DNA of 64,000 bases from positions 1-64,000 of IMG/VR virus record IMGVR_UViG_3300047561_001367; one strand, given 5' to 3'. This document shows positions 10 to 14,389 of the stretch, one piece after another. The number at the start of each line of letters is the position of its first letter. Position 1 is the stretch's first letter. The notes under the pieces were generated by a model. That model did no database searches, was not told where the DNA came from, and saw nothing but the letters and a program-made list of their open reading frames with translations. A program made the position numbers and the translations under genes. The DNA comes from a virus (lineage: Duplodnaviria > Caudoviricetes).

Positions 10-72
10 TTATATTTTGGTTCGTGTGATAGTATAGAAAACGAAAAGCGCACAGGCTATGATGGGGATCAT
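10..72 (-). CDS. tiny hydrophobic peptide (20 aa, MIPIIACALFVFYTITRTKI)
   Basis: Translated by hand. The ATG overlaps the TAA of 72..224 (TAATG coupling), and another ATG at 6 continues the operon out of the window. Confidence 0.4.
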   Translation of the reverse strand: MIPIIACALFVFYTITRTKI

Positions 73-224
73 TAGTAGTCTTGCGCGTGTTTGTGTTTTG
101 CCTTGCGCGTGTAGGCGTTCTTCACGCGCAGGGCGAATGATGGACGGCAAGCGGTCTTGCGAACGCTTCGCTCTATCTCGCGCGCGAAGGGGCGCGTGTC
201 GATGGTCATTATAATTCTGCTCAT
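72..224 (-). CDS. small basic protein (50 aa) ending in YTRKAKHK, ArfA/BrfA-like tail
   Basis: Hand translation gives MSRIIMTIDTRPFAREIERSVRKTACRPSFALRVKNAYTRKAKHKHAQDY. ATGA overlap with the upstream gene. Confidence 0.65.
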   Translation of the reverse strand: MSRIIMTIDTRPFAREIERSVRKTACRPSFALRVKNAYTRKAKHKHAQDY

Positions 225-361
225 ATTTTTTTTCTGAAAAGTTTTGGATAGGCTTGTTCTCGCGCTTTTTTTCCGCAGGGATAGCAGCGCGTTTCTCCGT
301 TATATCTTTCCCAATCGTAAGAAAGGGTATTGCATCTTTGGCATCGTTTGCGTCTTTTCAT
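221..361 (-). CDS. small zinc-ribbon protein (46 aa)
   Basis: Hand translation gives MKRRKRCQRCNTLSYDWERYNGETRCYPCGKKAREQAYPKLFRKKI, with two CxxC pairs. It starts 1 nt after the stop of 363..602. Confidence 0.7.
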   Translation of the reverse strand: MKRRKRCQRCNTLSYDWERYNGETRCYPCGKKAREQAYPKLFRKKI

Positions 362-362
362 G

Positions 363-602
363 TTAGTTGACTCCGAAGGTGATTTTGTTAGTGTCTTTGA
401 GCTTCAGCAACTCTTGCGCGAGCGTGGTGAGGCTATCGCACAGGAGGTCGAGCTTTTGCTCGTGAATTTCCAGATGCCTCTGGTGCAGTTCAAGAGTTTT
501 GCCGATGAGGGTTTCGTTTTCCTTGTGATCCTTCAGCGCGTTGCTGTGCAGGACGAGCGTTTCGAGGGCTTTGATGATTCCGTCTTGTGTGTTGTTGTTC
601 AT
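363..602 (-). CDS. hypothetical coiled-coil protein (79 aa)
   Basis: ORF track; heptad Leu pattern; tightly packed operon. Confidence 0.75.
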   Translation of the reverse strand: MNNNTQDGIIKALETLVLHSNALKDHKENETLIGKTLELHQRHLEIHEQKLDLLCDSLTTLAQELLKLKDTNKITFGVN

Positions 603-615
603 AGTGGTGATGATG

Positions 616-822
616 TTAGTGTGTTAGGGTTGAAAGGTCAAGAGTTTTTTTGAAGTATGCGGAGATGTCTTCCGCGCTTGCAGGGCGCAAGTCGTCGAGG
701 AAGAATTTCCCGAAGATGTCGTGATGACGGACAACAGCTTGGTTGCCTTCGATGCGAACGATGCGGAAGCAACGTGTGCCAACTTTCCAGATTTGGCTTT
801 TTTGTGGTGTTTTCTTTTTCAT
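616..822 (-). CDS. hypothetical protein (68 aa), possibly small SH3-like beta domain
   Basis: ORF track; starts 4 nt after the stop of 827..1033. Confidence 0.7.
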   Translation of the reverse strand: MKKKTPQKSQIWKVGTRCFRIVRIEGNQAVVRHHDIFGKFFLDDLRPASAEDISAYFKKTLDLSTLTH

Positions 823-826
823 GTTA

Positions 827-1033
827 TTAGATGTTGACTGCTACGGAGTTAATGGACTGAATCGCCAGTCCGCACAAGTGTCGGTAGTCGTAGCCCTTTT
901 TGTCGAGATTGGTTTTCATCTGTTCGATGCGGCGAACAGATTTGTTGATTGCCGTGCGAAGCATTGCCGCTTCGACGTTGATGATGACAGGAAGCTCGCC
1001 AGTTTTGGCGAAGGTGATGGTGTATGTTTTCAT
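827..1033 (-). CDS. hypothetical protein (68 aa), leaderless
   Basis: ORF track; TTGACC-16-TATACT promoter 7 nt upstream of the ATG. Confidence 0.75.
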   Translation of the reverse strand: MKTYTITFAKTGELPVIINVEAAMLRTAINKSVRRIEQMKTNLDKKGYDYRHLCGLAIQSINSVAVNI

Positions 1034-1040
1034 TGTTAAA

Positions 1041-1078
1041 AGTATAGCAGAGATGCGGTGAAGGTCAAGGGATTTTTT
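1041..1078 (-). promoter_or_regulatory. sigma70-type early promoter
   Basis: AAAAAATCCC-TTGACC-N16-TATACT-N7-ATG, with an extended -10 TG. Confidence 0.8.
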
Positions 1079-1081
1079 AAT

Positions 1082-1264
1082 TTATTTTCTGATGCGCTTT
1101 TTCCAGACCAGCGGCTCGACCCTATCGAAGGTGACGAGAGAGAAACGTCCGTGCCTGTTGGTGTAGGTGAACGTGCGCTTGGCGAGCGATGCGAACGTGC
1201 AAGCCGCCTTGTTTTTCGTGGCGAACTCGATGATCTCCGCGCTCGTGTAGTATTTCTTTGTCAT
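1082..1264 (-). CDS. hypothetical basic protein (60 aa), leaderless
   Basis: ORF track; promoter directly upstream. Confidence 0.7.
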   Translation of the reverse strand: MTKKYYTSAEIIEFATKNKAACTFASLAKRTFTYTNRHGRFSLVTFDRVEPLVWKKRIRK

Positions 1265-1270
1265 GCATAC

Positions 1271-1308
1271 ACTCTACCACAGCCGCGCAAAAATGCAAGG
1301 GATTTTTT
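1271..1308 (-). promoter_or_regulatory. sigma70-type early promoter
   Basis: AAAAAATCCC-TTGCAT-N16-TAGAGT-N6-ATG; TGTGG precedes the -10. Confidence 0.75.
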
Positions 1309-1347
1309 GCGATTAAAAAAATATTTTTTTTGTGCTTGACACGCGAG

Positions 1348-1364
1348 TTGGCACGCTTCATGAA
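1348..1364 (+). promoter_or_regulatory. sigma54-like -24/-12 motif (imperfect -12)
   Basis: TTGGCACGCTTCATGAA versus consensus YTGGCACG-N4-TTGCW. Same offset to the element as the copy at 2562. Confidence 0.45.
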
Positions 1365-1375
1365 TGGCATAATGC

Positions 1376-1452
1376 ATAAGTCCTTCATTTTCAACGACTT
1401 ACGAGCGCGCGGGGGGCGCGCCACAGTAAGTGCTTGATATTCAACGACTTAC
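1376..1452. repeat. 77-bp paired-palindrome element, copy 1
   Basis: ATAAGTCCTTCATTTTCAACGACTTAC (27) + GAGCGCGCGGGGGGCGCGCCACA (23) + GTAAGTGCTTGATATTCAACGACTTAC (27). Confidence 0.95.
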
Positions 1453-1484
1453 ATAAAAAGATTTTTGCAAAAAAAAGCTTGACA

Positions 1485-1501
1485 CGCGCAGGGCGTGCCA
1501 A
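1485..1501 (-). promoter_or_regulatory. sigma54-like -24/-12 motif
   Basis: TTGGCACGCCCTGCGCG, GG-N10-GC, pointing toward element copy 1. Confidence 0.45.
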
Positions 1502-1520
1502 GCGTGAGAGTGTGGCGCGA

Positions 1521-1769
1521 CTACTTCGCGGCCAAGGGCGCGACCAAGGGCTGCTCGATCTCGTCGAAGATGTTCACGTTAGGCTTTGCCCAAGTGAAAG
1601 ACGTTGAGCCTGTCGCGGGGTTGGTCACGCGCCAGTAAGCGTGACCGCCTTCAACCGCCGCCCTGTTGAAAGGCAGGACGATGAACACGAAGAACGCCGC
1701 GCTTGTTACGATGAGGGTGAGAAGACTGCTCATCAGAGCAACCGCCGTGGTGTATGTGTATTTATTCAT
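1521..1769 (-). CDS. small membrane protein (82 aa)
   Basis: ORF track; N-terminal hydrophobic helix. Confidence 0.7.
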   Translation of the reverse strand: MNKYTYTTAVALMSSLLTLIVTSAAFFVFIVLPFNRAAVEGGHAYWRVTNPATGSTSFTWAKPNVNIFDEIEQPLVAPLAAK

Positions 1770-1781
1770 TGAGTGTTTAGG

Positions 1782-1964
1782 TTAGTTGTTTTCTTGATCG
1801 TGTGCAAGGATTTTTTCCATGCGTTCGTGCAAAAGTTTATAGACAAGATGCGCGTCATGCACAGCGTCAACGCAATCTTTCCTCATGCCTTCCATGAGAA
1901 AGTCTTTGGCGAAGAAGCGCACACTATTTGACTCAAGAGCTTTTTGTATGTTGGGAGTGATCAT
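1782..1964 (-). CDS. hypothetical protein (60 aa, MITPNIQKAL...)
   Basis: Start re-assigned to ATG 1964, 1 nt after the upstream stop. Confidence 0.7.
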   Translation of the reverse strand: MITPNIQKALESNSVRFFAKDFLMEGMRKDCVDAVHDAHLVYKLLHERMEKILAHDQENN

Positions 1965-1965
1965 G

Positions 1966-2058
1966 TTAGATGGAGAGTAAGAAGCCGATGAGGCCGATTG
2001 AAACCGCAATGAGAGTGTAGAGCGCGAAGCCCAGCAAGTCGAGGATTTGTTCTTTCAT
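1966..2058 (-). CDS. small membrane peptide (30 aa, MKEQILDLLGFALYTLIAVSIGLIGFLLSI)
   Basis: C-terminal part of the track ORF; the ATG is 4 nt after the stop of 2063..2278. Confidence 0.6.
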   Translation of the reverse strand: MKEQILDLLGFALYTLIAVSIGLIGFLLSI

Positions 2059-2062
2059 GAGA

Positions 2063-2278
2063 TTATTTGTATGATCCAACAGGGATGTTCGGCGTTCCAG
2101 AGAAAACCGCTTCCAGAAAGCGATCACCATCGAATCGCGGATTTTGTTCGGTGAAGTATGCGGCAAAGTCCATTGCCAGAACTTCGACAACTTCATATTC
2201 GCCAATCGGCGCGTGTTGTTTTTCAGCGAGACGCTTGCCCAAGATTTTTGCAACGGCTTGGTAGTGTTTTTTTGTCAT
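2063..2278 (-). CDS. conserved phage early protein (MTKKHY...NPRFD.xRF..A type), function unknown
   Basis: ORF track; motif pattern recalled from many phage hypothetical proteins; degenerate promoter TTGACC-17-CACAAT-6-ATG upstream. Confidence 0.8.
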   Translation of the reverse strand: MTKKHYQAVAKILGKRLAEKQHAPIGEYEVVEVLAMDFAAYFTEQNPRFDGDRFLEAVFSGTPNIPVGSYK

Positions 2279-2322
2279 GGTGTTATTGTGGTTTGTTTTA
2301 GTGTTAAGGTCAAGGGATTATT

Positions 2323-2478
2323 TTAGCAATTCTTGAGACGGATGAGGACATCCTTGTTGACTTCGAGAGCCTCGGTGAGAACCTCGAAGCAGAACTCCCG
2401 CCATTCCTGCTCGGTGATTTTACCAGCGCGGAAAGCGTTGAGCTTGTTGACGTATTCGGTGTTGTTCGTCTTGATCAT
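2323..2478 (-). CDS. hypothetical protein (51 aa, MIKTNNTEYV...), leaderless
   Basis: Start re-assigned from the promoter position. Confidence 0.75.
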   Translation of the reverse strand: MIKTNNTEYVNKLNAFRAGKITEQEWREFCFEVLTEALEVNKDVLIRLKNC

Positions 2479-2484
2479 GTTTAT

Positions 2485-2523
2485 AGAATACCACAGCCCC
2501 GCAAAAACGCAAGGGATTTTTTT
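2485..2523 (-). promoter_or_regulatory. sigma70-type early promoter
   Basis: AAAAAAATCCC-TTGCGT-N16-TATTCT-N6-ATG. Confidence 0.8.
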
Positions 2524-2561
2524 GAAAATTATTTTTTTATTTTTTTCGCTTGACACGTGAC

Positions 2562-2578
2562 TTGGCATGCCGCTTGCG
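2562..2578 (+). promoter_or_regulatory. sigma54-like -24/-12 motif
   Basis: TTGGCATGCCGCTTGCG, close to consensus; predicted +1 near 2589, at the start of element copy 2. Confidence 0.55.
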
Positions 2579-2589
2579 TAGCATATTCC

Positions 2590-2666
2590 ATAACACGTTG
2601 ATTTTCAACAGCTTACGTCGCGCGGCGGGGCGCGGCCGCGTAAGTGCTTGATATTCAACGACTTAG
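2590..2666. repeat. 77-bp paired-palindrome element, copy 2
   Basis: ATAACACGTTGATTTTCAACAGCTTAC + GTCGCGCGGCGGGGCGCGGCCGC + GTAAGTGCTTGATATTCAACGACTTAG; a degenerate third palindrome lies at 2700-2726. Confidence 0.95.
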
Positions 2667-2788
2667 CCTATGATCGTGAAATTCATTTCGTGATGATACG
2701 TAAAGCCTTACGGCTTAACGACTTAAGTGAGTTTCCAAAAAACACAAAAAAAAATGCGCACTTGGCGCACTTTTTTCTTGACAAGATT

Positions 2789-2887
2789 TTAGTTGAAGAA
2801 CTCGCGCAGTATGCCGCGCAGGTAGAAAACAAAGCAACGCGGGTTGCGGATTAGGCAACGCGCGTGCAATGTGATGCGTGCGAACAT
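2789..2887 (-). CDS. small basic/hydrophobic peptide (32 aa, MFARITLHARCLIRNPRCFVFYLRGILREFFN)
   Basis: Hand translation; the ATG is 3 nt after the stop of 2891..3163. Confidence 0.45.
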   Translation of the reverse strand: MFARITLHARCLIRNPRCFVFYLRGILREFFN

Positions 2888-2890
2888 GGC

Positions 2891-3163
2891 CTACTCTTCG
2901 CAGTAGTCGTTCGCCTCGTTCTGGTTGTAGTCCGCGAGGTCGTCCTCGCCCGACCCATCCCCAGCCCAGCCAACGTAGGCATGAGCCTCGGCCTCCTCAC
3001 GCTCGCGCTCCTCGCGCTCGTGGAGTTCCTGCGCGGCGGCCCAATCGTCGCGCACCTGTTGCACGAGGATTTCCTCGCGCTCGACCTGTTCGGTGGCGAG
3101 GTCGTCCACGTGCGCGTTGACGATGAAGGTTTCGTTGATGGTGGTGGTGTTGGTGTTGTTCAT
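2891..3163 (-). CDS. highly acidic small protein (90 aa), leaderless
   Basis: Start re-assigned to ATG 3163 behind TTGCGT-17-TATTCT-6; 26 D/E versus 5 R and 0 K. Confidence 0.75.
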   Translation of the reverse strand: MNNTNTTTINETFIVNAHVDDLATEQVEREEILVQQVRDDWAAAQELHEREEREREEAEAHAYVGWAGDGSGEDDLADYNQNEANDYCEE

Positions 3164-3169
3164 GGTTAA

Positions 3170-3208
3170 AGAATAGGATGAGATGAGAGTGAACGCAAGG
3201 ATTATTTT
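3170..3208 (-). promoter_or_regulatory. sigma70-type early promoter
   Basis: AATAATCC-TTGCGT-N17-TATTCT-N6-ATG. Confidence 0.75.
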
Positions 3209-3551
3209 ATGCGGCCATGCGAACACGGAACACAAGCTCCAGCTTGCCAGCTTTGGGGCTAGATTCGCCAGCGACAAAAGCCGCGAGCATTTCGCTGTCC
3301 AAGTTGAAACGCGAGGGATATTGAGAGTTAGCCCAACGCAAGCCATCGGGCAAGCCAAGGTCGATGAGTTGTTGAACCTCTGAGTCAGAAGGGGACGAGT
3401 AAGGCGACCAGCTGAGAGTTGCAACGACCTCGTTCGTGTTGACGTTGATGAGATCATGCCAGAGCTTGATGCAGTCGCCATCATAATCCTCCGAGACGGA
3501 GAGGAAGCAGAGGGTTCCGTTGACGTTGAATTGTGTTTCTTTATCTTTCAT
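3207..3551 (-). CDS. hypothetical protein (114 aa), leaderless
   Basis: ORF track; promoter directly upstream. Confidence 0.75.
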   Translation of the reverse strand: MKDKETQFNVNGTLCFLSVSEDYDGDCIKLWHDLINVNTNEVVATLSWSPYSSPSDSEVQQLIDLGLPDGLRWANSQYPSRFNLDSEMLAAFVAGESSPKAGKLELVFRVRMAA

Positions 3552-3557
3552 ACATAC

Positions 3558-3596
3558 AATCTACCACAGGTCATGCAAAACACAAGGGATTTTTTT
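3558..3596 (-). promoter_or_regulatory. sigma70-type early promoter
   Basis: AAAAAAATCCC-TTGTGT-N16-TAGATT-N6-ATG. Confidence 0.75.
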
Positions 3597-3629
3597 ACGA
3601 TTGTGCAAATTATTTTTTATCTTTTTTAC

Positions 3630-3658
3630 TTGACATCTTGCGCGTGTTGTGGTATTAT
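3630..3658 (+). promoter_or_regulatory. sigma70-type promoter firing into element copy 3
   Basis: TTGACA-N17-TATTAT with TGTGG before the -10; no convincing ORF downstream. Confidence 0.65.
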
Positions 3659-3671
3659 TCGCGTCCTATAT

Positions 3672-3748
3672 GTAAAGTGTTGATTTTCAACGACTTACGG
3701 CGGCGCGCCCCGCCCTTCGGCGTAAGTGCTTGATATTCAAGGGGTTAT
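3672..3748. repeat. 77-bp paired-palindrome element, copy 3 (core inverted)
   Basis: GTAAAGTGTTGATTTTCAACGACTTAC + GGCGGCGCGCCCCGCCCTTCGGC + GTAAGTGCTTGATATTCAAGGGGTTAT. Confidence 0.95.
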
Positions 3749-3792
3749 ACAACATGCGATTTTGGCAAGAAAAAGCGCACCAAGTGCAAGAC

Positions 3793-3809
3793 TTGGCACG
3801 CTTCCTGCT
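3793..3809 (+). promoter_or_regulatory. sigma54-like -24/-12 motif
   Basis: TTGGCACGCTTCCTGCT, near consensus. Confidence 0.55.
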
Positions 3810-3823
3810 ATAGGATGAGGGCC

Positions 3824-4087
3824 TTACCAGCCCGCCATGCCTTGGTCTATCTCGTTAAGGATAACGTCATCGACTTTCTTTTGCAGTTCCTCATCAGTGA
3901 AGAGGGACTCCATAGGAACAGGGTGAAGGATCGAAGGAGCCTTGAAGTCCAAGACTTCGGTGTCCGTGTCGTTATTCCACAGGTTGAGTGTGACGATCTC
4001 AAAGTTCATGTCGCTATCGACGTAGAATTCCGCGTCGATGTTGTAGCTTGTTCCGTTGAGGGTGAAGGATGTGTTGATGTCTTTCAT
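3824..4087 (-). CDS. acidic hypothetical protein (87 aa), leaderless
   Basis: ORF track; promoter directly upstream. Confidence 0.75.
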   Translation of the reverse strand: MKDINTSFTLNGTSYNIDAEFYVDSDMNFEIVTLNLWNNDTDTEVLDFKAPSILHPVPMESLFTDEELQKKVDDVILNEIDQGMAGW

Positions 4088-4093
4088 GCTTTT

Positions 4094-4131
4094 AATTTAT
4101 CAGAGGTTAATGGATTGTAAAGGGATTTTTT
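4094..4131 (-). promoter_or_regulatory. sigma70-type early promoter
   Basis: AAAAAATCCC-TTTACA-N16-TAAATT-N6-ATG. Confidence 0.75.
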
Positions 4132-4135
4132 ATGA

Positions 4136-4309
4136 TTAGCGTAACTTTTTTTTGTTGACGTTCCAGAAGTCAGTATAAGGAACGCGATGCGCTTTGATCT
4201 CATACGTTCCGCGCTTGTTAGTAATGCGCCACACGCGCAAATTGATCCCAACAAAGTAAGGGTGTCCGAGTTGGTTGATTTCTTTCGTGCTGTATTCGTT
4301 CTTAACCAT
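4136..4309 (-). CDS. basic hypothetical protein (57 aa, MVKNEYSTKE...), leaderless
   Basis: Start re-assigned; TGTGG-TATTCT-N6-ATG at 4316-4326. Confidence 0.65.
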   Translation of the reverse strand: MVKNEYSTKEINQLGHPYFVGINLRVWRITNKRGTYEIKAHRVPYTDFWNVNKKKLR

Positions 4310-4723
4310 GTGAAAAGAATACCACACCCCACGGAAAACACCAGAAAAATCTTTGCGGTTGAGTAAATTATTTTTGTTGACACCTACCCCCCTACTTTTT
4401 GAAAAAAATCGAACGGCCGTTTGAAAATTTCGGGGGGGAGGGGACCATTTTCAATCTCCAGTACTTTTATTTTAATACATTTAATTTAACCGCCAAGCAT
4501 AAATCACGATAAGTATCGTATAACTGTACAAACTTTTATAAAACCGTATATGGAAAACACCCTAATAATAAAATAACAAATTTAAAAAATCCGCGGGGTT
4601 TATTTTTTTCTTAATTTGTAATTTAATCCATGGATCTATTAAGTCTATTAAGACTATTACGATATCGTCACTTGACTTAAATCAAATATGATTGTAATAT
4701 ATGGATGAAAGGAGGTGAAAAGT

Positions 4724-4849
4724 ATGAAAGATTTCTTAAAATTTACTAAAGTAGAGTTAATCCTATTTTTTATTATTTGTAGTCAGGCAGTTATTGCGAT
4801 GGCGAATTACGATCAAATATTTAAAATGATGGGTAAGATTATTCAGTAG
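4724..4849 (+). CDS. small membrane peptide (41 aa)
   Basis: Hand translation gives MKDFLKFTKVELILFFIICSQAVIAMANYDQIFKMMGKIIQ. Perfect SD AAAGGAGGTGA upstream and a terminator downstream. Confidence 0.7.
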   Translation: MKDFLKFTKVELILFFIICSQAVIAMANYDQIFKMMGKIIQ

Positions 4850-8073: not shown

Positions 8074-8133
8074 ATTAAAAAGTGTCTACACTCTAAAAAG
8101 TGTAATTAATAGTAGTGTTAATTGTTCTCTAAC

Positions 8134-8865
8134 ATGAAAAAAAAACCTGAAAAAACCCGCGACGTTTCTCCATATGCGGAGAAGAAAAAAACAAAAGTAA
8201 CCATAGACCTGAGTATCCGTGAATTACCCTGGACAGATAAACAAAAAGAGTTTATTAGCCTTGCTTTGCACAAAGATACCAAAGTAATTATCTTAAAAGG
8301 TGTTGCTGGCACCGCCAAAACCATTTTGGCCGTTTATAGTGCCCTACGGCTTATTAAAGATAAAAAAGCCAGCGAAATATACTATAGCCGCGTTCCAGTA
8401 GAAGCCTCTGTTCATGGCATTGGTTACATTAAGGGTACATCTGAAGAAAAAATGTCACCATACACCCAACCATTGGTAGATAAATTAAATGAATTGTTAC
8501 CAGTGCCACACGTTAAGTCTTTAATGCTGGATGAAAGGATTATTGGCGTTCCATTGGGCTTTTTGCGCGGATTAAATATCTCTAATGCTACATTTATTAT
8601 GGATGAGGCGCAGAATTGCCGCGTAGAAGACTTCCTATTGGTTATGACTCGTATGGCTACGTTTTCTACACTGTTTATTTGTGGAGACGCCCAACAGTCC
8701 GACATTAAACAAAGTGGATTTTGTAAAGTATTTGATTTATTTGATAATGACGAATCAAAAGAGTCGGGAATCCATACTTTTGAGTTTGGAAAAGAGGATA
8801 TTGTTCGTTCCGAGATACTTTCCTACATTATAGAGAAATTTGAAAACTTAAAGAATAAAGTGTAA
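8134..8865 (+). CDS. phoH: PhoH-like ATPase
   Basis: GVAGTAKT Walker A variant, FLRG, IMDEAQN, TRM, GDAQQSD and DIVRS motifs. Confidence 0.95.
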   Translation: MKKKPEKTRDVSPYAEKKKTKVTIDLSIRELPWTDKQKEFISLALHKDTKVIILKGVAGTAKTILAVYSALRLIKDKKASEIYYSRVPVEASVHGIGYIKGTSEEKMSPYTQPLVDKLNELLPVPHVKSLMLDERIIGVPLGFLRGLNISNATFIMDEAQNCRVEDFLLVMTRMATFSTLFICGDAQQSDIKQSGFCKVFDLFDNDESKESGIHTFEFGKEDIVRSEILSYIIEKFENLKNKV

Positions 8866-11644: not shown

Positions 11645-12352
11645 ATGCCTAAGAAAAAAAAGGTAATTAGACCGACTTTTGAAGAGTCTATAGATATAGT
11701 CAACTCTGAAATACAAAAACGTAAACATCGGTGGCATTTAACGGCTATCGCTTGGATGGATTTCGAAGATGTTTCTCAGAGACTTAGAATTCATATTTAT
11801 AAAAAATGGGCGAAGTGGGATCAAGATCGTCCATTAAGACCTTGGCTAAATCAAGTTATTAATCATCAAATGACTAATATGCTTAGAAATCATTATTCTA
11901 ATTTTTCCAGACCATGTTTGAAATGTCCATTTAATACTGGCGATCAGGGCTGTAGTGTTTATGGAACACAAAATAATAGTTGTAAAGATTATAAAAAATG
12001 GGAGAAAAGCAAAAAGTCCGCATATGATATTAAATTTCCATTAAGTATACATAGTCCTAATCATGACAATCCAGAGACAACTTTAGAGAGTGTATTGCAA
12101 AGTACTGAAAGTAATTTAAATATAGAAGAAGTTCTACCAATATTTCACGAGTTAATGAAGAAGAATTTGAGTAATATCGAAGCCAAAGTTTATGAATACA
12201 TGTTTTTACAACATTTGGACGACTCAGATGTTGCTAAAAAAATGGGATATAAATTAAGTATAAAAGAGGGGCGGCCAGCTTATCGTCAAATTAGCAAGAT
12301 TAAATCTAGAATTTTACAAAAAGCGCGTGAATTAGTTAAGGAGGTTGTATGA
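11645..12352 (+). CDS. phage sigma70-family RNA polymerase sigma factor (candidate late sigma)
   Basis: Region 2-like DFEDVSQ..WD..RPLRPWL..VI.HQM.N.LRN; region 4 LS..E..V...FL......DVAKKMG; Cys4 insert. Confidence 0.8.
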   Translation: MPKKKKVIRPTFEESIDIVNSEIQKRKHRWHLTAIAWMDFEDVSQRLRIHIYKKWAKWDQDRPLRPWLNQVINHQMTNMLRNHYSNFSRPCLKCPFNTGDQGCSVYGTQNNSCKDYKKWEKSKKSAYDIKFPLSIHSPNHDNPETTLESVLQSTESNLNIEEVLPIFHELMKKNLSNIEAKVYEYMFLQHLDDSDVAKKMGYKLSIKEGRPAYRQISKIKSRILQKARELVKEVV

Positions 12353-13446
12353 GTGATTTAACTGAAGATCAGGGTAATAGAATAAGAGAGATTTTAAAGA
12401 AAAATCCCGAAGCAAGTATTTCTGAGATTACTACATATGCTTACGATAATCCATCTATAGATAGTCGTAGTAAAGAGGGGCGTGCGGTTAAAAAATTCCT
12501 ATTAGATAATAAAATTGAATATAAAAATCGTTCAGTATTTACTCGTGATCGTATAGAACTCACAAAAGAACAACTTGAATTTATAGAGAATAATTATAAA
12601 AATCAACATTACTTAGATATGGCGAAAATCTTATTTAAAAATAATGATTTAACCCATTTAAATTTAGAAGCTAGAGAAGTTAATAAATATGTAGAAACGC
12701 TTCAGAAAAAAGATCCTACAACTCTAGAAGTAACCACTTATGTTCCTAAAGAACGCAATAACCCACTTGGTGAGTACTTCCCACCGCGCAGATCTGATCA
12801 AACTTTATATAGAATTAATAGATATTTAAATTTGGGATGGGAATTAGAAAAATTAAAAGCTGTACAAATAAAACAAGTAGATACTTTACAAAGATATTTA
12901 AATACTTTTAGTTTTTGTTATCAAATTAATACTTATAGACGAGACGACGATAGAAAATTATTCGAAGATGCTTTTATTCGTTATACTTACGATAAAGATG
13001 ACCTAACTCAGGAGGAATTAGATCAATTTATTGTATTATGTACAGAAGTTGTTACTGCATCTACTATTCTTCAACAGGTCGAAGACTTACGGCAAACATT
13101 AAGACAGGCTAGTGAAGAGGAAGAGGGTCGTAATATTAAAATGCAACTTAACGAGGCTATCAGCAACTTACAAACTGAGTATAATCAGTGCCGTGGACGT
13201 CAGAATAAATTATATAAATCCCTTGTAGACGATAGATCTAAAAAGATACAAGAACGTAAGCAAGAGAACGCAAGTATTTTAAATTTAGTTCAGGCATGGA
13301 AAGACGAGGAGCGTAGAAAAAGTATTATTAATCTTGCAGAAGCTCAAAAACAAAATCTCGAAGGTGAAGCTAAACGCTTATCATCTATGGACGAATTAAA
13401 GGCAGTAATTCGTGGAATTGATATAGATGAAATGGTTCATAGCTAA
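12349..13446 (+). CDS. conserved hypothetical protein with C-terminal coiled coil (possible small terminase/DNA-binding protein)
   Basis: ORF track; ATGA overlap; lies upstream of terL. Function inferred only from position. Confidence 0.6.
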   Translation: MSDLTEDQGNRIREILKKNPEASISEITTYAYDNPSIDSRSKEGRAVKKFLLDNKIEYKNRSVFTRDRIELTKEQLEFIENNYKNQHYLDMAKILFKNNDLTHLNLEAREVNKYVETLQKKDPTTLEVTTYVPKERNNPLGEYFPPRRSDQTLYRINRYLNLGWELEKLKAVQIKQVDTLQRYLNTFSFCYQINTYRRDDDRKLFEDAFIRYTYDKDDLTQEELDQFIVLCTEVVTASTILQQVEDLRQTLRQASEEEEGRNIKMQLNEAISNLQTEYNQCRGRQNKLYKSLVDDRSKKIQERKQENASILNLVQAWKDEERRKSIINLAEAQKQNLEGEAKRLSSMDELKAVIRGIDIDEMVHS

Positions 13447-13456
13447 TATAATTAAT

Positions 13457-14389
13457 ATGGATAAGAATACAATGTATTTAAAATGTAAAGTCTGTGGAAA
13501 TGATTTCGATTTTTTCACAGAGCTAAAAGACCATTTAAGAAATTATCATAAAGTATCTGCCAAAACTTATTTTGAATCTAATTGGAGGCGTATTGACCGT
13601 TCGAATGGAGAGAAATTAGAATATAAAACATTCGATCAATATATTACTTGCGATTTTAAAGATAAAAAAAATTATAAAAGTTGGCTAAAAACTTTATCAA
13701 AAGAGGAATGCGGAGATTATTTTAAACATAAATTATTACAGTATTGTGATTTAAAAAAATTAGATTACGCTCCATGTCAAGCTGAATGTCAAACAGTTAA
13801 TTGTTTAATTCCTATTAGCAGCATGGAAGGATTTTCTGGATTGACTTACAATGAGATATGTAAATCAATAAATTTAAAAACAAGATTCGATTACACTAAA
13901 AAAGATATCGCTTTAACTCCTATTGACCAAATTATTATCGATACCAGAGAACAAAAGCCTTTTAAATTTAAAGATAAAATTATAATTGATTCTAAATTAG
14001 AATACGGGGATTATTCCGTCCATCCTAATAATAAATTGGCTGTAGAGCGCAAAAGTCTCGTTGATTTATTCGGTACTTTGAGTGGTGGGCGCGAAAGGTT
14101 TGAAAAAGAAATCCAACGTGCCCAAAAAATGAATGGTTATATTGTTGTGGTGGTCGAATCCACTTTAAATAATATGATGTATCAGAAACAAAAGTTTTCC
14201 AAGGCTTCTGGGGATTTTATTGCGCATAATATGCGCCAAATTTTAAGAAATTATAATAATATACAATTTGTATTTTGTGATGGACGTGAAGAGGCTCGCA
14301 ATAAAACAATTCATATATTAGAAATGAATGAAAATGCTTTTGATATAGATTTACAATATTATTTTGACACAACATGGCACTCATTGTAG
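13457..14389 (+). CDS. C2H2 zinc finger + ERCC4 (XPF/Mus81-like) nuclease
   Basis: CKVC...HLRNYH; IIDTREQ, GDY, VERKS..DL..TL..GR.RF..E motifs. Confidence 0.85.
   Translation: MDKNTMYLKCKVCGNDFDFFTELKDHLRNYHKVSAKTYFESNWRRIDRSNGEKLEYKTFDQYITCDFKDKKNYKSWLKTLSKEECGDYFKHKLLQYCDLKKLDYAPCQAECQTVNCLIPISSMEGFSGLTYNEICKSINLKTRFDYTKKDIALTPIDQIIIDTREQKPFKFKDKIIIDSKLEYGDYSVHPNNKLAVERKSLVDLFGTLSGGRERFEKEIQRAQKMNGYIVVVVESTLNNMMYQKQKFSKASGDFIAHNMRQILRNYNNIQFVFCDGREEARNKTIHILEMNENAFDIDLQYYFDTTWHSL

Follow-up and report, generated by a model that had tools for sequence, protein, structure and literature searches.

In the DNA of a tailed phage (Caudoviricetes; IMG/VR record IMGVR_UViG_3300047561_001367), three 77-bp units separate groups of small early genes. 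The window analysed here comprises 64,000 nucleotides at the start of a linear contig that measures 125,470 bp and is an estimated 71% complete. The units are tentatively interpreted as boundary modules that are read as duplex DNA by a protein, possibly a bending protein of the host HU/IHF family, and not as RNA or cruciform structures. In addition, they most likely mark the places at which relatives gain or lose gene cassettes. A boundary module of protein-binding sites that also marks cassette exchange is the kind of thing for which analogues are known. The rigid double-palindrome design with sigma54-type neighbours appears to be undescribed, and a literature search for the motif strings returned unrelated hits only.

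Every unit consists of a 27-mer, a 23-bp core with 87-100% G+C and a second 27-mer, and the centres of the two palindromes are exactly 50 bp apart. A sequence-only reading of the window had located these 27+23+27 bp units at 1376, 2590 and 3672, all of them intergenic, and both the coordinates and the spacing were borne out. A degenerate 25-mer pattern gave 12 matches (six sites, each on both strands), compared to 0.45 +/- 0.67 in shuffled sequences, and no credible further site of this pattern is present elsewhere in the 125-kb contig. The same reading had limited variation to the N4 blocks and described a conserved core. The N4 blocks are indeed freely variable columns across 139 aligned copies of the element, but the core and the outer left arms differ between copies as well. 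The core retains its 23 bp and its richness in G+C, whereas its sequence varies and copy 3 carries the reverse complement of the core of copies 1 and 2. Besides this inversion, the promoters firing into the elements and the terminators ahead of them had been overlooked. A third, degenerate 27-mer follows copy 2, 60 bp from its second 27-mer. The 60-bp arrangement also occurs in relatives L005 (12192-12660) and L007 (2685-3100), in arrays of up to eight 27-mers with two alternating spacer types. The spacer is either the 23-bp G+C core or a 33-bp sequence cctatgatcgtgaaat...tttcgtgatgat, the latter being present once in the window (2667-2699). Since the contig is cut at its left end and complete relatives have 7-13 copies, the three units of the window represent only the last members of a larger set.

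The exact 19-mer from the right 27-mer matched 18 viral stretches, and a pattern fixing only the inner blocks and the 23-bp gap matched more than 118. Of the pattern matches, 169 elements, distributed over 89 or more IMG/VR stretches, have a core with a G+C content of 70% or higher. These include 141 distinct copies, 139 of which align over 77 columns without a gap. Adjacent motif hits no more than 150 bp apart are spaced by exactly 50 bp in 325 of 385 pairs, with minor classes at 60, 53, 42 and 34-36 bp. Conservation is concentrated in the blocks GTAA, TTGA, TCAA and TTAC, while the N4 blocks, the 3-nt centres and the core are variable. The four complete relatives (148-178 kb) contain 11, 11, 13 and 7 copies, and a reversed control pattern yields none. 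In three of them, all copies are located within one stretch of 14-16 kb. In G128, this stretch is a G+C-rich region at about 16.5-34 kb that is transcribed divergently from a block encoding PhoH, a sigma factor and terminase, as in the window. Some elements of relatives directly follow stop codons or tRNA genes (the latter in L123, L131 and L151). The core is inverted elsewhere in the family, too. Core polarity was considered as a functional feature and rejected. In any one of the four complete relatives, the cores look mostly alike in orientation, which could be explained by regional GC skew and the descent of paralogous copies, and core polarity is unlinked to the polarity of the arms.

The variation among the 139 aligned copies points to selection on DNA. 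A two-hairpin structure has 82.2% of its cells paired, compared to 81.5% in column shuffles, and one long hairpin has 75.0% compared to 74.1%. Pairs between N4 blocks within a 27-mer form in 40-54% of the copies, which is no better than in shuffles; the compensatory N4 pairing that the sequence-only reading had named as a sign of RNA or cruciform structure is therefore absent. Columns 20 and 58 are identical instead of complementary: pairing is observed in 14% of cases where 44% would be expected, and 115 of the 139 copies leave these columns unpaired. The outer arms vary most often by T9 to C and by A69 to G, each seen in 41 copies. On DNA, these two changes mirror each other, whereas on one RNA strand one hairpin would have to accommodate a C-A mismatch and the other a G-U pair. 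As covariation is lacking and variation is mirror-symmetric on the duplex, selection is suggested to act on the duplex and not on a transcript. RNA folding was tried and set aside: compared with shuffles, copy 1 alone folds clearly better (z of -3.6 and -4.7), while copies 2 and 3 give weak values of -0.95 to -2.4. A search of Rfam returned no relevant match to the element, and no T-run that could serve as a U-tract follows the elements.

The E. coli IHF consensus is the 13-bp sequence WATCAR-N4-TTR. Those arm positions of the family that were not fixed by the search pattern read T-C-A-(A/G)-N4-T-T-A, which equals this consensus including its degenerate R. A perfect WATCARNNNNTTR is present on at least one strand in 193 of the 282 27-mers of the family. 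The window contains five perfect IHF-type 13-mers and seven with one mismatch. On the minus strand, TATCAAGCACTTA (three times), AATCAACGTGTTA, AATCAACACTTTA and, with one mismatch, AATGAAGGACTTA were found just as previously quoted, and the plus-strand arms each deviate from the consensus by one mismatch. With the family-wide match to the consensus, the free N4 and the 50-bp spacing, the IHF reading of the elements is plausible. The half-sites overlap, however. A gene for HU or IHF (PF00216), which the sequence-only reading had recommended looking for, was found neither in the contig nor in the four complete relatives, so that a binder of this family would have to come from the host.

The host is probably a member of the Bacteroidota, judging from the genomes that share the 19-mer. 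Exact copies of the 19-mer are present in the genomes of 15 species, including 13 from the Bacteroidota, and the 19-mer is enriched over a reversed control in the five genomes tested. Most genes of the window have no Shine-Dalgarno sequence, which fits a host from this phylum. The PF00216 family was found in Bacteroides, which served as a control, and Bacteroides possesses the IHF/HU-family host factor BHFa (PMC6606824). In these genomes, the 19-mer is a single and asymmetric site that often abuts the 3' end of one or another tRNA gene and overlaps a terminator stem. In several Bacteroidota genomes, no more than a few bases separate the ends of various tRNA genes from TTGA-WWW-TCAAGCACTTAC, which is succeeded by a loop, GTAAGTGC and a T-run (stretches L019, L020, L022, L024, L028, L029, L034, L035, L037, L044 and L046-L048). 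This family of tRNA-trailer terminators has up to 19 exact bases in common with the phage element. The Bacteroidota genome G084 (L168, L172-L181) harbours 14 copies of an insertion sequence with a 27-mer of the same design, GTAAGTATTTGATGTTCAAACAATTAC, located about 70 bp from the end of the insertion sequence and about 65 bp before the start codon of the transposase. Ends of insertion sequences are a classic place for host-factor sites. A universal Bacteroidota motif was considered and rejected, as just 8 of the 121 genomes sampled for it have the tRNA-trailer form, and 4 of 151 have the full 27-mer.

Read in the direction of the early genes (minus strand), all three copies show the order terminator of one early unit, element, promoter of the next unit. 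A terminator scan placed hairpins at 1477-1503, 2746-2778 and 3776-3788, separate from the elements. The early promoters consist of an A-tract, a TTGC-like -35 box, 16 nt, TAnnnT and 6-7 nt before the ATG; with so short a distance to the start codon, leaderless early mRNAs are to be expected. Several early genes (at least five in the window), among them the one that comes first behind each element, have a promoter of their own, and a promoter scan found 13 sites against 4.8 expected. The distance from the element to the -35 box of the next early promoter is 77 bp for copies 1 and 2 and 86 bp for copy 3. In relative L098 (1-2700), most small early genes carry their own promoter of this design with a CTTGC-like -35 box, and the design is retained in distant relatives.

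On the opposite strand, promoter-like sites face into each of the three elements, against the direction of the early genes. Sigma54-like motifs end 12 nt before copies 1 and 2, a TTGACA-type site precedes copy 3, and transcription is predicted to start 1, 1 and about 7 nt before copies 1, 2 and 3, respectively. The motifs at 2562-2577 and 3793-3808 have the canonical GG at -24 and GC at -12 in the spacing TGGCAC-N5-TTGC, and the motif at 1348-1363 has GA at -12. Across the family, 32 of the 78 hits to the sigma54-like motif in 0.8 Mb end exactly 12 nt ahead of an element; the -24 part is invariant, and -12 in relatives reads GC in 16 and GA in 11 of 27 distinct copies. In distant relatives, a TTGACA-17-TAnnnn site takes its place before the element. 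Altogether, an inward promoter-like site at a fixed distance accompanies 64 of the 141 distinct copies (about 45%), on both sides in 12 of them, these counts being upper bounds because some TTGACA strings are terminator arms and not -35 boxes. Over half of the family copies have no inward promoter. To our knowledge, sigma54-type promoters in a phage early region that all oppose the early genes are unusual. No protein of the contig scores above the cut-off for an enhancer-binding protein (PF00158). The only weak match is a MoxR-like ATPase, and a phage-encoded enhancer-binding protein was rejected with this as the sole candidate. Typical -24/-12 sigma54 promoters are in use in Flavobacteria (PMC9723704).

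The evidence for cassette exchange comes from the comparison with relatives L013 and L006. Homology to the window breaks off after position 2658, a point within the right 27-mer of copy 2, and sets in again at 3767, so that 1.1 kb (2659-3766), comprising two genes and one element, is absent from both relatives. One breakpoint of this indel is situated in the shared 19-mer of the right 27-mer, and copy 3 ends 19 bp before the other. The relatives have a single element here, which combines the left part and core of copy 2 with an outer arm like that of copy 3. Furthermore, gene order differs among relatives, and their genes often end on an element. The shuffling of early-gene cassettes that had been suggested fits an indel with a breakpoint inside an element and a variable gene order, but the recombinase sought along with it is missing: no tyrosine or serine recombinase was found in the contig or in the four complete relatives (tyrosine recombinases were searched for as PF00589 in these five phage records). 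Without such an enzyme, homologous exchange at the conserved arms, as proposed for the PeSL cassettes of T4-type phages, is the likely route, and a breakpoint within the element fits the arms as homologous crossover points.

Under the proposed mechanism, each 27-mer would offer two overlapping, opposed IHF-type sites (TCAR-N4-TTA after an A/T-rich centre), one of which would be occupied by a host bending protein of the HU/IHF family. As no phage gene for HU/IHF, an enhancer-binding protein or a recombinase was found, a host factor is the economical candidate. Two sharp bends 50 bp apart would then flank the stiff, hard-to-melt G+C core, and the folded nucleoprotein might insulate neighbouring units and shape the DNA upstream of the early promoter. 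IHF shapes upstream DNA in this way at lambda pL and Mu Pe. Geometry, conservation, lack of covariation and position are observed; binding by a protein, the identity of this protein and any effect on transcription are inferred. Several points weigh against the interpretation. The bidirectional 'double' sites suggested earlier do exist as two oppositely oriented half-sites per 27-mer, but TTGA and TCAA are only 3 nt apart, whereas a single dimer using both half-sites symmetrically would need about 5 nt, judging from the E. coli IHF-DNA structure. Given this geometry, the overlapping half-sites are more likely alternatives. Composition alone could account for the A/T-rich loops from which the 'WA' of the consensus is completed, and a sequence-specific regulator other than IHF or HU would yield the same pattern of conservation. 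Moreover, the consensus applied is that of E. coli and not of the host, which is itself assigned through the taxonomy of the 19-mer matches; we know of no DNA consensus for HU/IHF-family proteins of the Bacteroidota. Strict phasing with the next promoter was rejected, since the element-to-promoter distance is not constant across the family and shows peaks at 37, 77 and about 97 bp within a broad distribution. A purely architectural role also leaves the fixed position of the inward-facing promoters unaccounted for, which keeps an operator and an RNA leader alive as explanations.

An operator for another sequence-specific protein, while unlikely, has to be taken seriously. Here, a dimer or tetramer of a phage early protein or a host regulator would bind the four 7-bp-spaced blocks GTAA, TTGA, TCAA and TTAC. 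Bound at about +2 to +84, it would block the inward promoter or act as a roadblock to transcription from it. Conservation without covariation fits any duplex-DNA binder, the promoter-like site stays in position even where its type switches from sigma54-like to TTGACA-17-TAnnnn, and the early region is rich in small uncharacterised proteins, some of them basic or zinc-ribbon-like. However, for roughly half of the elements there is no inward promoter that could be regulated, none of the early proteins could be assigned a DNA-binding domain, and the single asymmetric half-sites in host genomes oppose a strictly symmetric dimer. The most widespread small early protein (50 amino acids) was considered as a ribbon-helix-helix binder and rejected, as it has no Pfam support and as G129, a distant but complete relative, has elements without having this protein. 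It is rather improbable that the unit acts as RNA, namely as the 5' end of a transcript from the inward promoter, for example a structured leader such as a put-like antiterminator, with which RNA polymerase could pass antisense through the early units toward the PhoH-sigma-terminase block, or an RNase III-type processing or termination signal. The exact 12-nt distance with a predicted start 1 nt before the element, the inward promoters of the window all lying on the plus strand like the late genes, elements directly behind stop codons or tRNA genes, and the folding of copy 1 would suit such a role. The absence of compensatory changes, with one stem position even anti-complementary, the variation that is mirror-symmetric on DNA and not wobble-compatible on one strand, the poor folding of the other two copies and the missing U-tract and Rfam match contradict it. 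So do the inverted cores, the lack of an inward promoter at over half of the copies and the many copies preceded by a terminator in the sense direction.

To much the same degree, it is doubtful that the elements are conserved merely as recombinational linkers, that is, as portable homology or attC-like sites for the exchange of early cassettes. The indel described above, the differing gene order and the genes ending on elements agree with this, but homology alone does not demand a fixed 23-bp core, invariant blocks with free N4 or conservation despite unrelated cores. The second indel breakpoint lies outside element 3, and no recombinase was found in the phage records. Little credence is given to an antisense programme, in which host polymerase with sigma54 (or sigmaA) would start 1-8 nt before each element and transcribe toward the PhoH-sigma-terminase block, silencing the early genes. 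The double bend would return a downstream activator to the closed complex, or nascent element RNA would render the polymerase terminator-resistant, within a cascade of host sigmaA, then host sigma54, then phage sigma factor. Very improbable, finally, is a landmark for DNA transactions, either by cruciform extrusion or as a pause or stop signal for injection or packaging comparable to the palindrome-rich injection-stop region of T5. In three complete relatives, a portion of about 8-9% of the genome holds all elements, and their near-palindromic design allows a long imperfect hairpin. Yet the arms are systematically non-complementary at N4, with columns 20 and 58 avoiding pairing; the copies spread through the whole region and do not lie at its edge, and the 96-bp terminal repeat of G128 resembles an assembly overlap. 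Boundary modules bound as duplex DNA by a host bending protein remain the tentatively preferred interpretation.

Table 1. Elements, promoter-like sites, terminators and genes located in the 64-kb window.
Feature	Position	Strand	Details
Element copy 1	1376-1452		27-mer 1376-1402; G+C core 1403-1425 (G-rich on +); 27-mer 1426-1452
Element copy 2	2590-2666		27-mer, G+C core (G-rich on +), 27-mer
Element copy 3	3672-3748		arms oriented as in copies 1 and 2; core reverse-complemented (C-rich on +)
Alternative spacer and third 27-mer after copy 2	2667-2726		33-bp spacer 2667-2699; degenerate 27-mer 2700-2726
Sigma54-like motif	1348-1363	+	TTGGCACG-N4-ATGA; -24 perfect, -12 GA not GC; predicted start ~1375
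Sigma54-like promoter	2562-2577	+	TTGGCATG-N4-TTGC; canonical GG/GC; predicted start ~2589
Promoter-like site firing into copy 3	3630-3658	+	TTGACA-17-TATTAT (11/12); predicted start ~3665
Third sigma54-like motif	3793-3808	+	TTGGCACG-N4-CTGC; within terminator hairpin; no element after it
Intrinsic terminator	1469-1503	-	11-bp stem and T8; closes early unit upstream of copy 1
Bidirectional terminator	2746-2776	both	A9-hairpin-T6; closes early unit upstream of copy 2
Terminator	3770-3801	-	hairpin and T-run; closes early unit upstream of copy 3
Early promoter	1262-1308	-	A-tract, TTGCAT, 16 nt, TAGAGT, 6 nt, ATG; leaderless start 1264
Early promoter	2476-2522	-	same design (TTGCGT-16-TATTCT-6-ATG)
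Early promoter	3549-3595	-	same design (TTGTGT-16-TAGATT-6-ATG)
Further early promoters	1031-1078; 3161-3208		same design
Small-gene array	72-4309	-	~15 genes (30-114 aa); G+C-rich; no Pfam or PHROG family
PhoH gene	8122-8865	+	
Gene with Sigma70 region 2 domain	11645-12352	+	235-aa protein
Gene of no known family	12349-13446		365-aa protein
ERCC4 nuclease gene	13427-14389	+	

The elements lie in a region that differs in composition from the remaining contig, with 44-49% G+C from base 1 to about 4400 and about 32% thereafter. An early region of 44-52% G+C beside DNA of about 30-33% is seen in the window, in L003 and L005-L008, and in G128 (16.5-34 kb). A chimeric assembly was rejected as an explanation for the jump at about 4400, because this G+C-rich array recurs beside AT-rich DNA in independent contigs and a complete relative, which makes the jump a feature of the clade. 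Searches against known phages left the 4.4-kb region without a DNA match, and for the terminase the identity to any cultured phage does not exceed 26%. At the junction itself (4383-4443), the palindrome TCGAACGGCCGTTTGA is set within an inverted repeat, CCTACCCCCCTAC...GGGGGGGAGGGG. The palindrome is similar to TTCAAACG-N-CGTTTGAA palindromes found 20-35 bp upstream of sigma54-like motifs in relatives L003, L005 and L107. Nearby, a hydrophobic open reading frame of 41 amino acids (4724-4849) is preceded by the strong Shine-Dalgarno sequence AAAGGAGGTGA, which almost no other gene of the window has. Past the early region, the plus strand encodes PhoH, a sigma70-family protein, an ERCC4 nuclease, the large terminase and a 3121-aa tape measure protein. 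The identification of the last ruled out hairpin promoters for an N4-like virion RNA polymerase, for which this open reading frame had been the candidate. The protein with the Sigma70 region 2 domain is conserved in 36 of 88 element-bearing stretches, adjoining PhoH, the 365-aa protein and the ERCC4 nuclease, and is probably the phage's own late sigma factor.

Several known systems resemble the elements in part. IHF sites are classically located upstream of phage early promoters and beside sigma54-type promoters, as at lambda pL, at Mu Pe and in sigma54 systems. Compared by consensus, the elements share with these IHF-assisted promoters the 13-bp WATCAR-N4-TTR including the degenerate R and the free N4. 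They differ in being overlapping inverted pairs, with two 27-bp palindromes 50 bp apart around a G+C core in 7-13 units per genome, in lying downstream and not upstream of the sigma54-like promoters, and in a probable Bacteroidota host without an established consensus. In the E. coli RIB/RIP (BIME-1) repeats, REP palindromes flank an IHF site at the 3' ends of transcription units. Both are repeated intergenic composites of G+C-rich sequence and IHF-type sites that follow transcription units, but here the arrangement is inverse, with IHF-type palindromes flanking the core, and the unit is phage-borne, strictly 77 bp long and unrelated in sequence. Integron attC sites likewise place imperfect inverted repeats at cassette boundaries, and in relatives the upstream gene may end in the element. 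Their structure is conserved while their sequence is not, and their length varies; the phage elements, in contrast, conserve sequence blocks and not structure, and no integrase accompanies them. The PeSL cassettes of T4-type phages consist of a terminator stem-loop fused to an early promoter, and homologous exchange has been proposed for them (PMC2839356, PMC4122927). Like PeSLs, the elements are short, conserved composite regulatory motifs between small early open reading frames of unknown function, located at indel points between close relatives. Of the two breakpoints, however, only one falls within an element, and the element is neither terminator nor promoter. Both of these are separate from the 77-bp unit between them. 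This unit has rigid dimensions and the look of a binding site for a protein, and no covariation is seen in its stems.

If a host bending protein does bind the elements, a clade of abundant, uncultured phages of 150-180 kb builds its host-takeover region from standard parts. These would be individual leaderless promoters for several of the early genes, terminators and, between the units, a rigid module with a double bend. The elements would then also provide a testable recognition sequence for a nucleoid protein of the Bacteroidota, for which we know of no such sequence so far. The marker TCAA-N4-TTAC-N23-GTAA-N4-TTGA could be used to find such phages and their early regions in metagenomes. Furthermore, the elements would be a second example, after the PeSLs of T4, of regulatory punctuation that doubles as points of cassette exchange.

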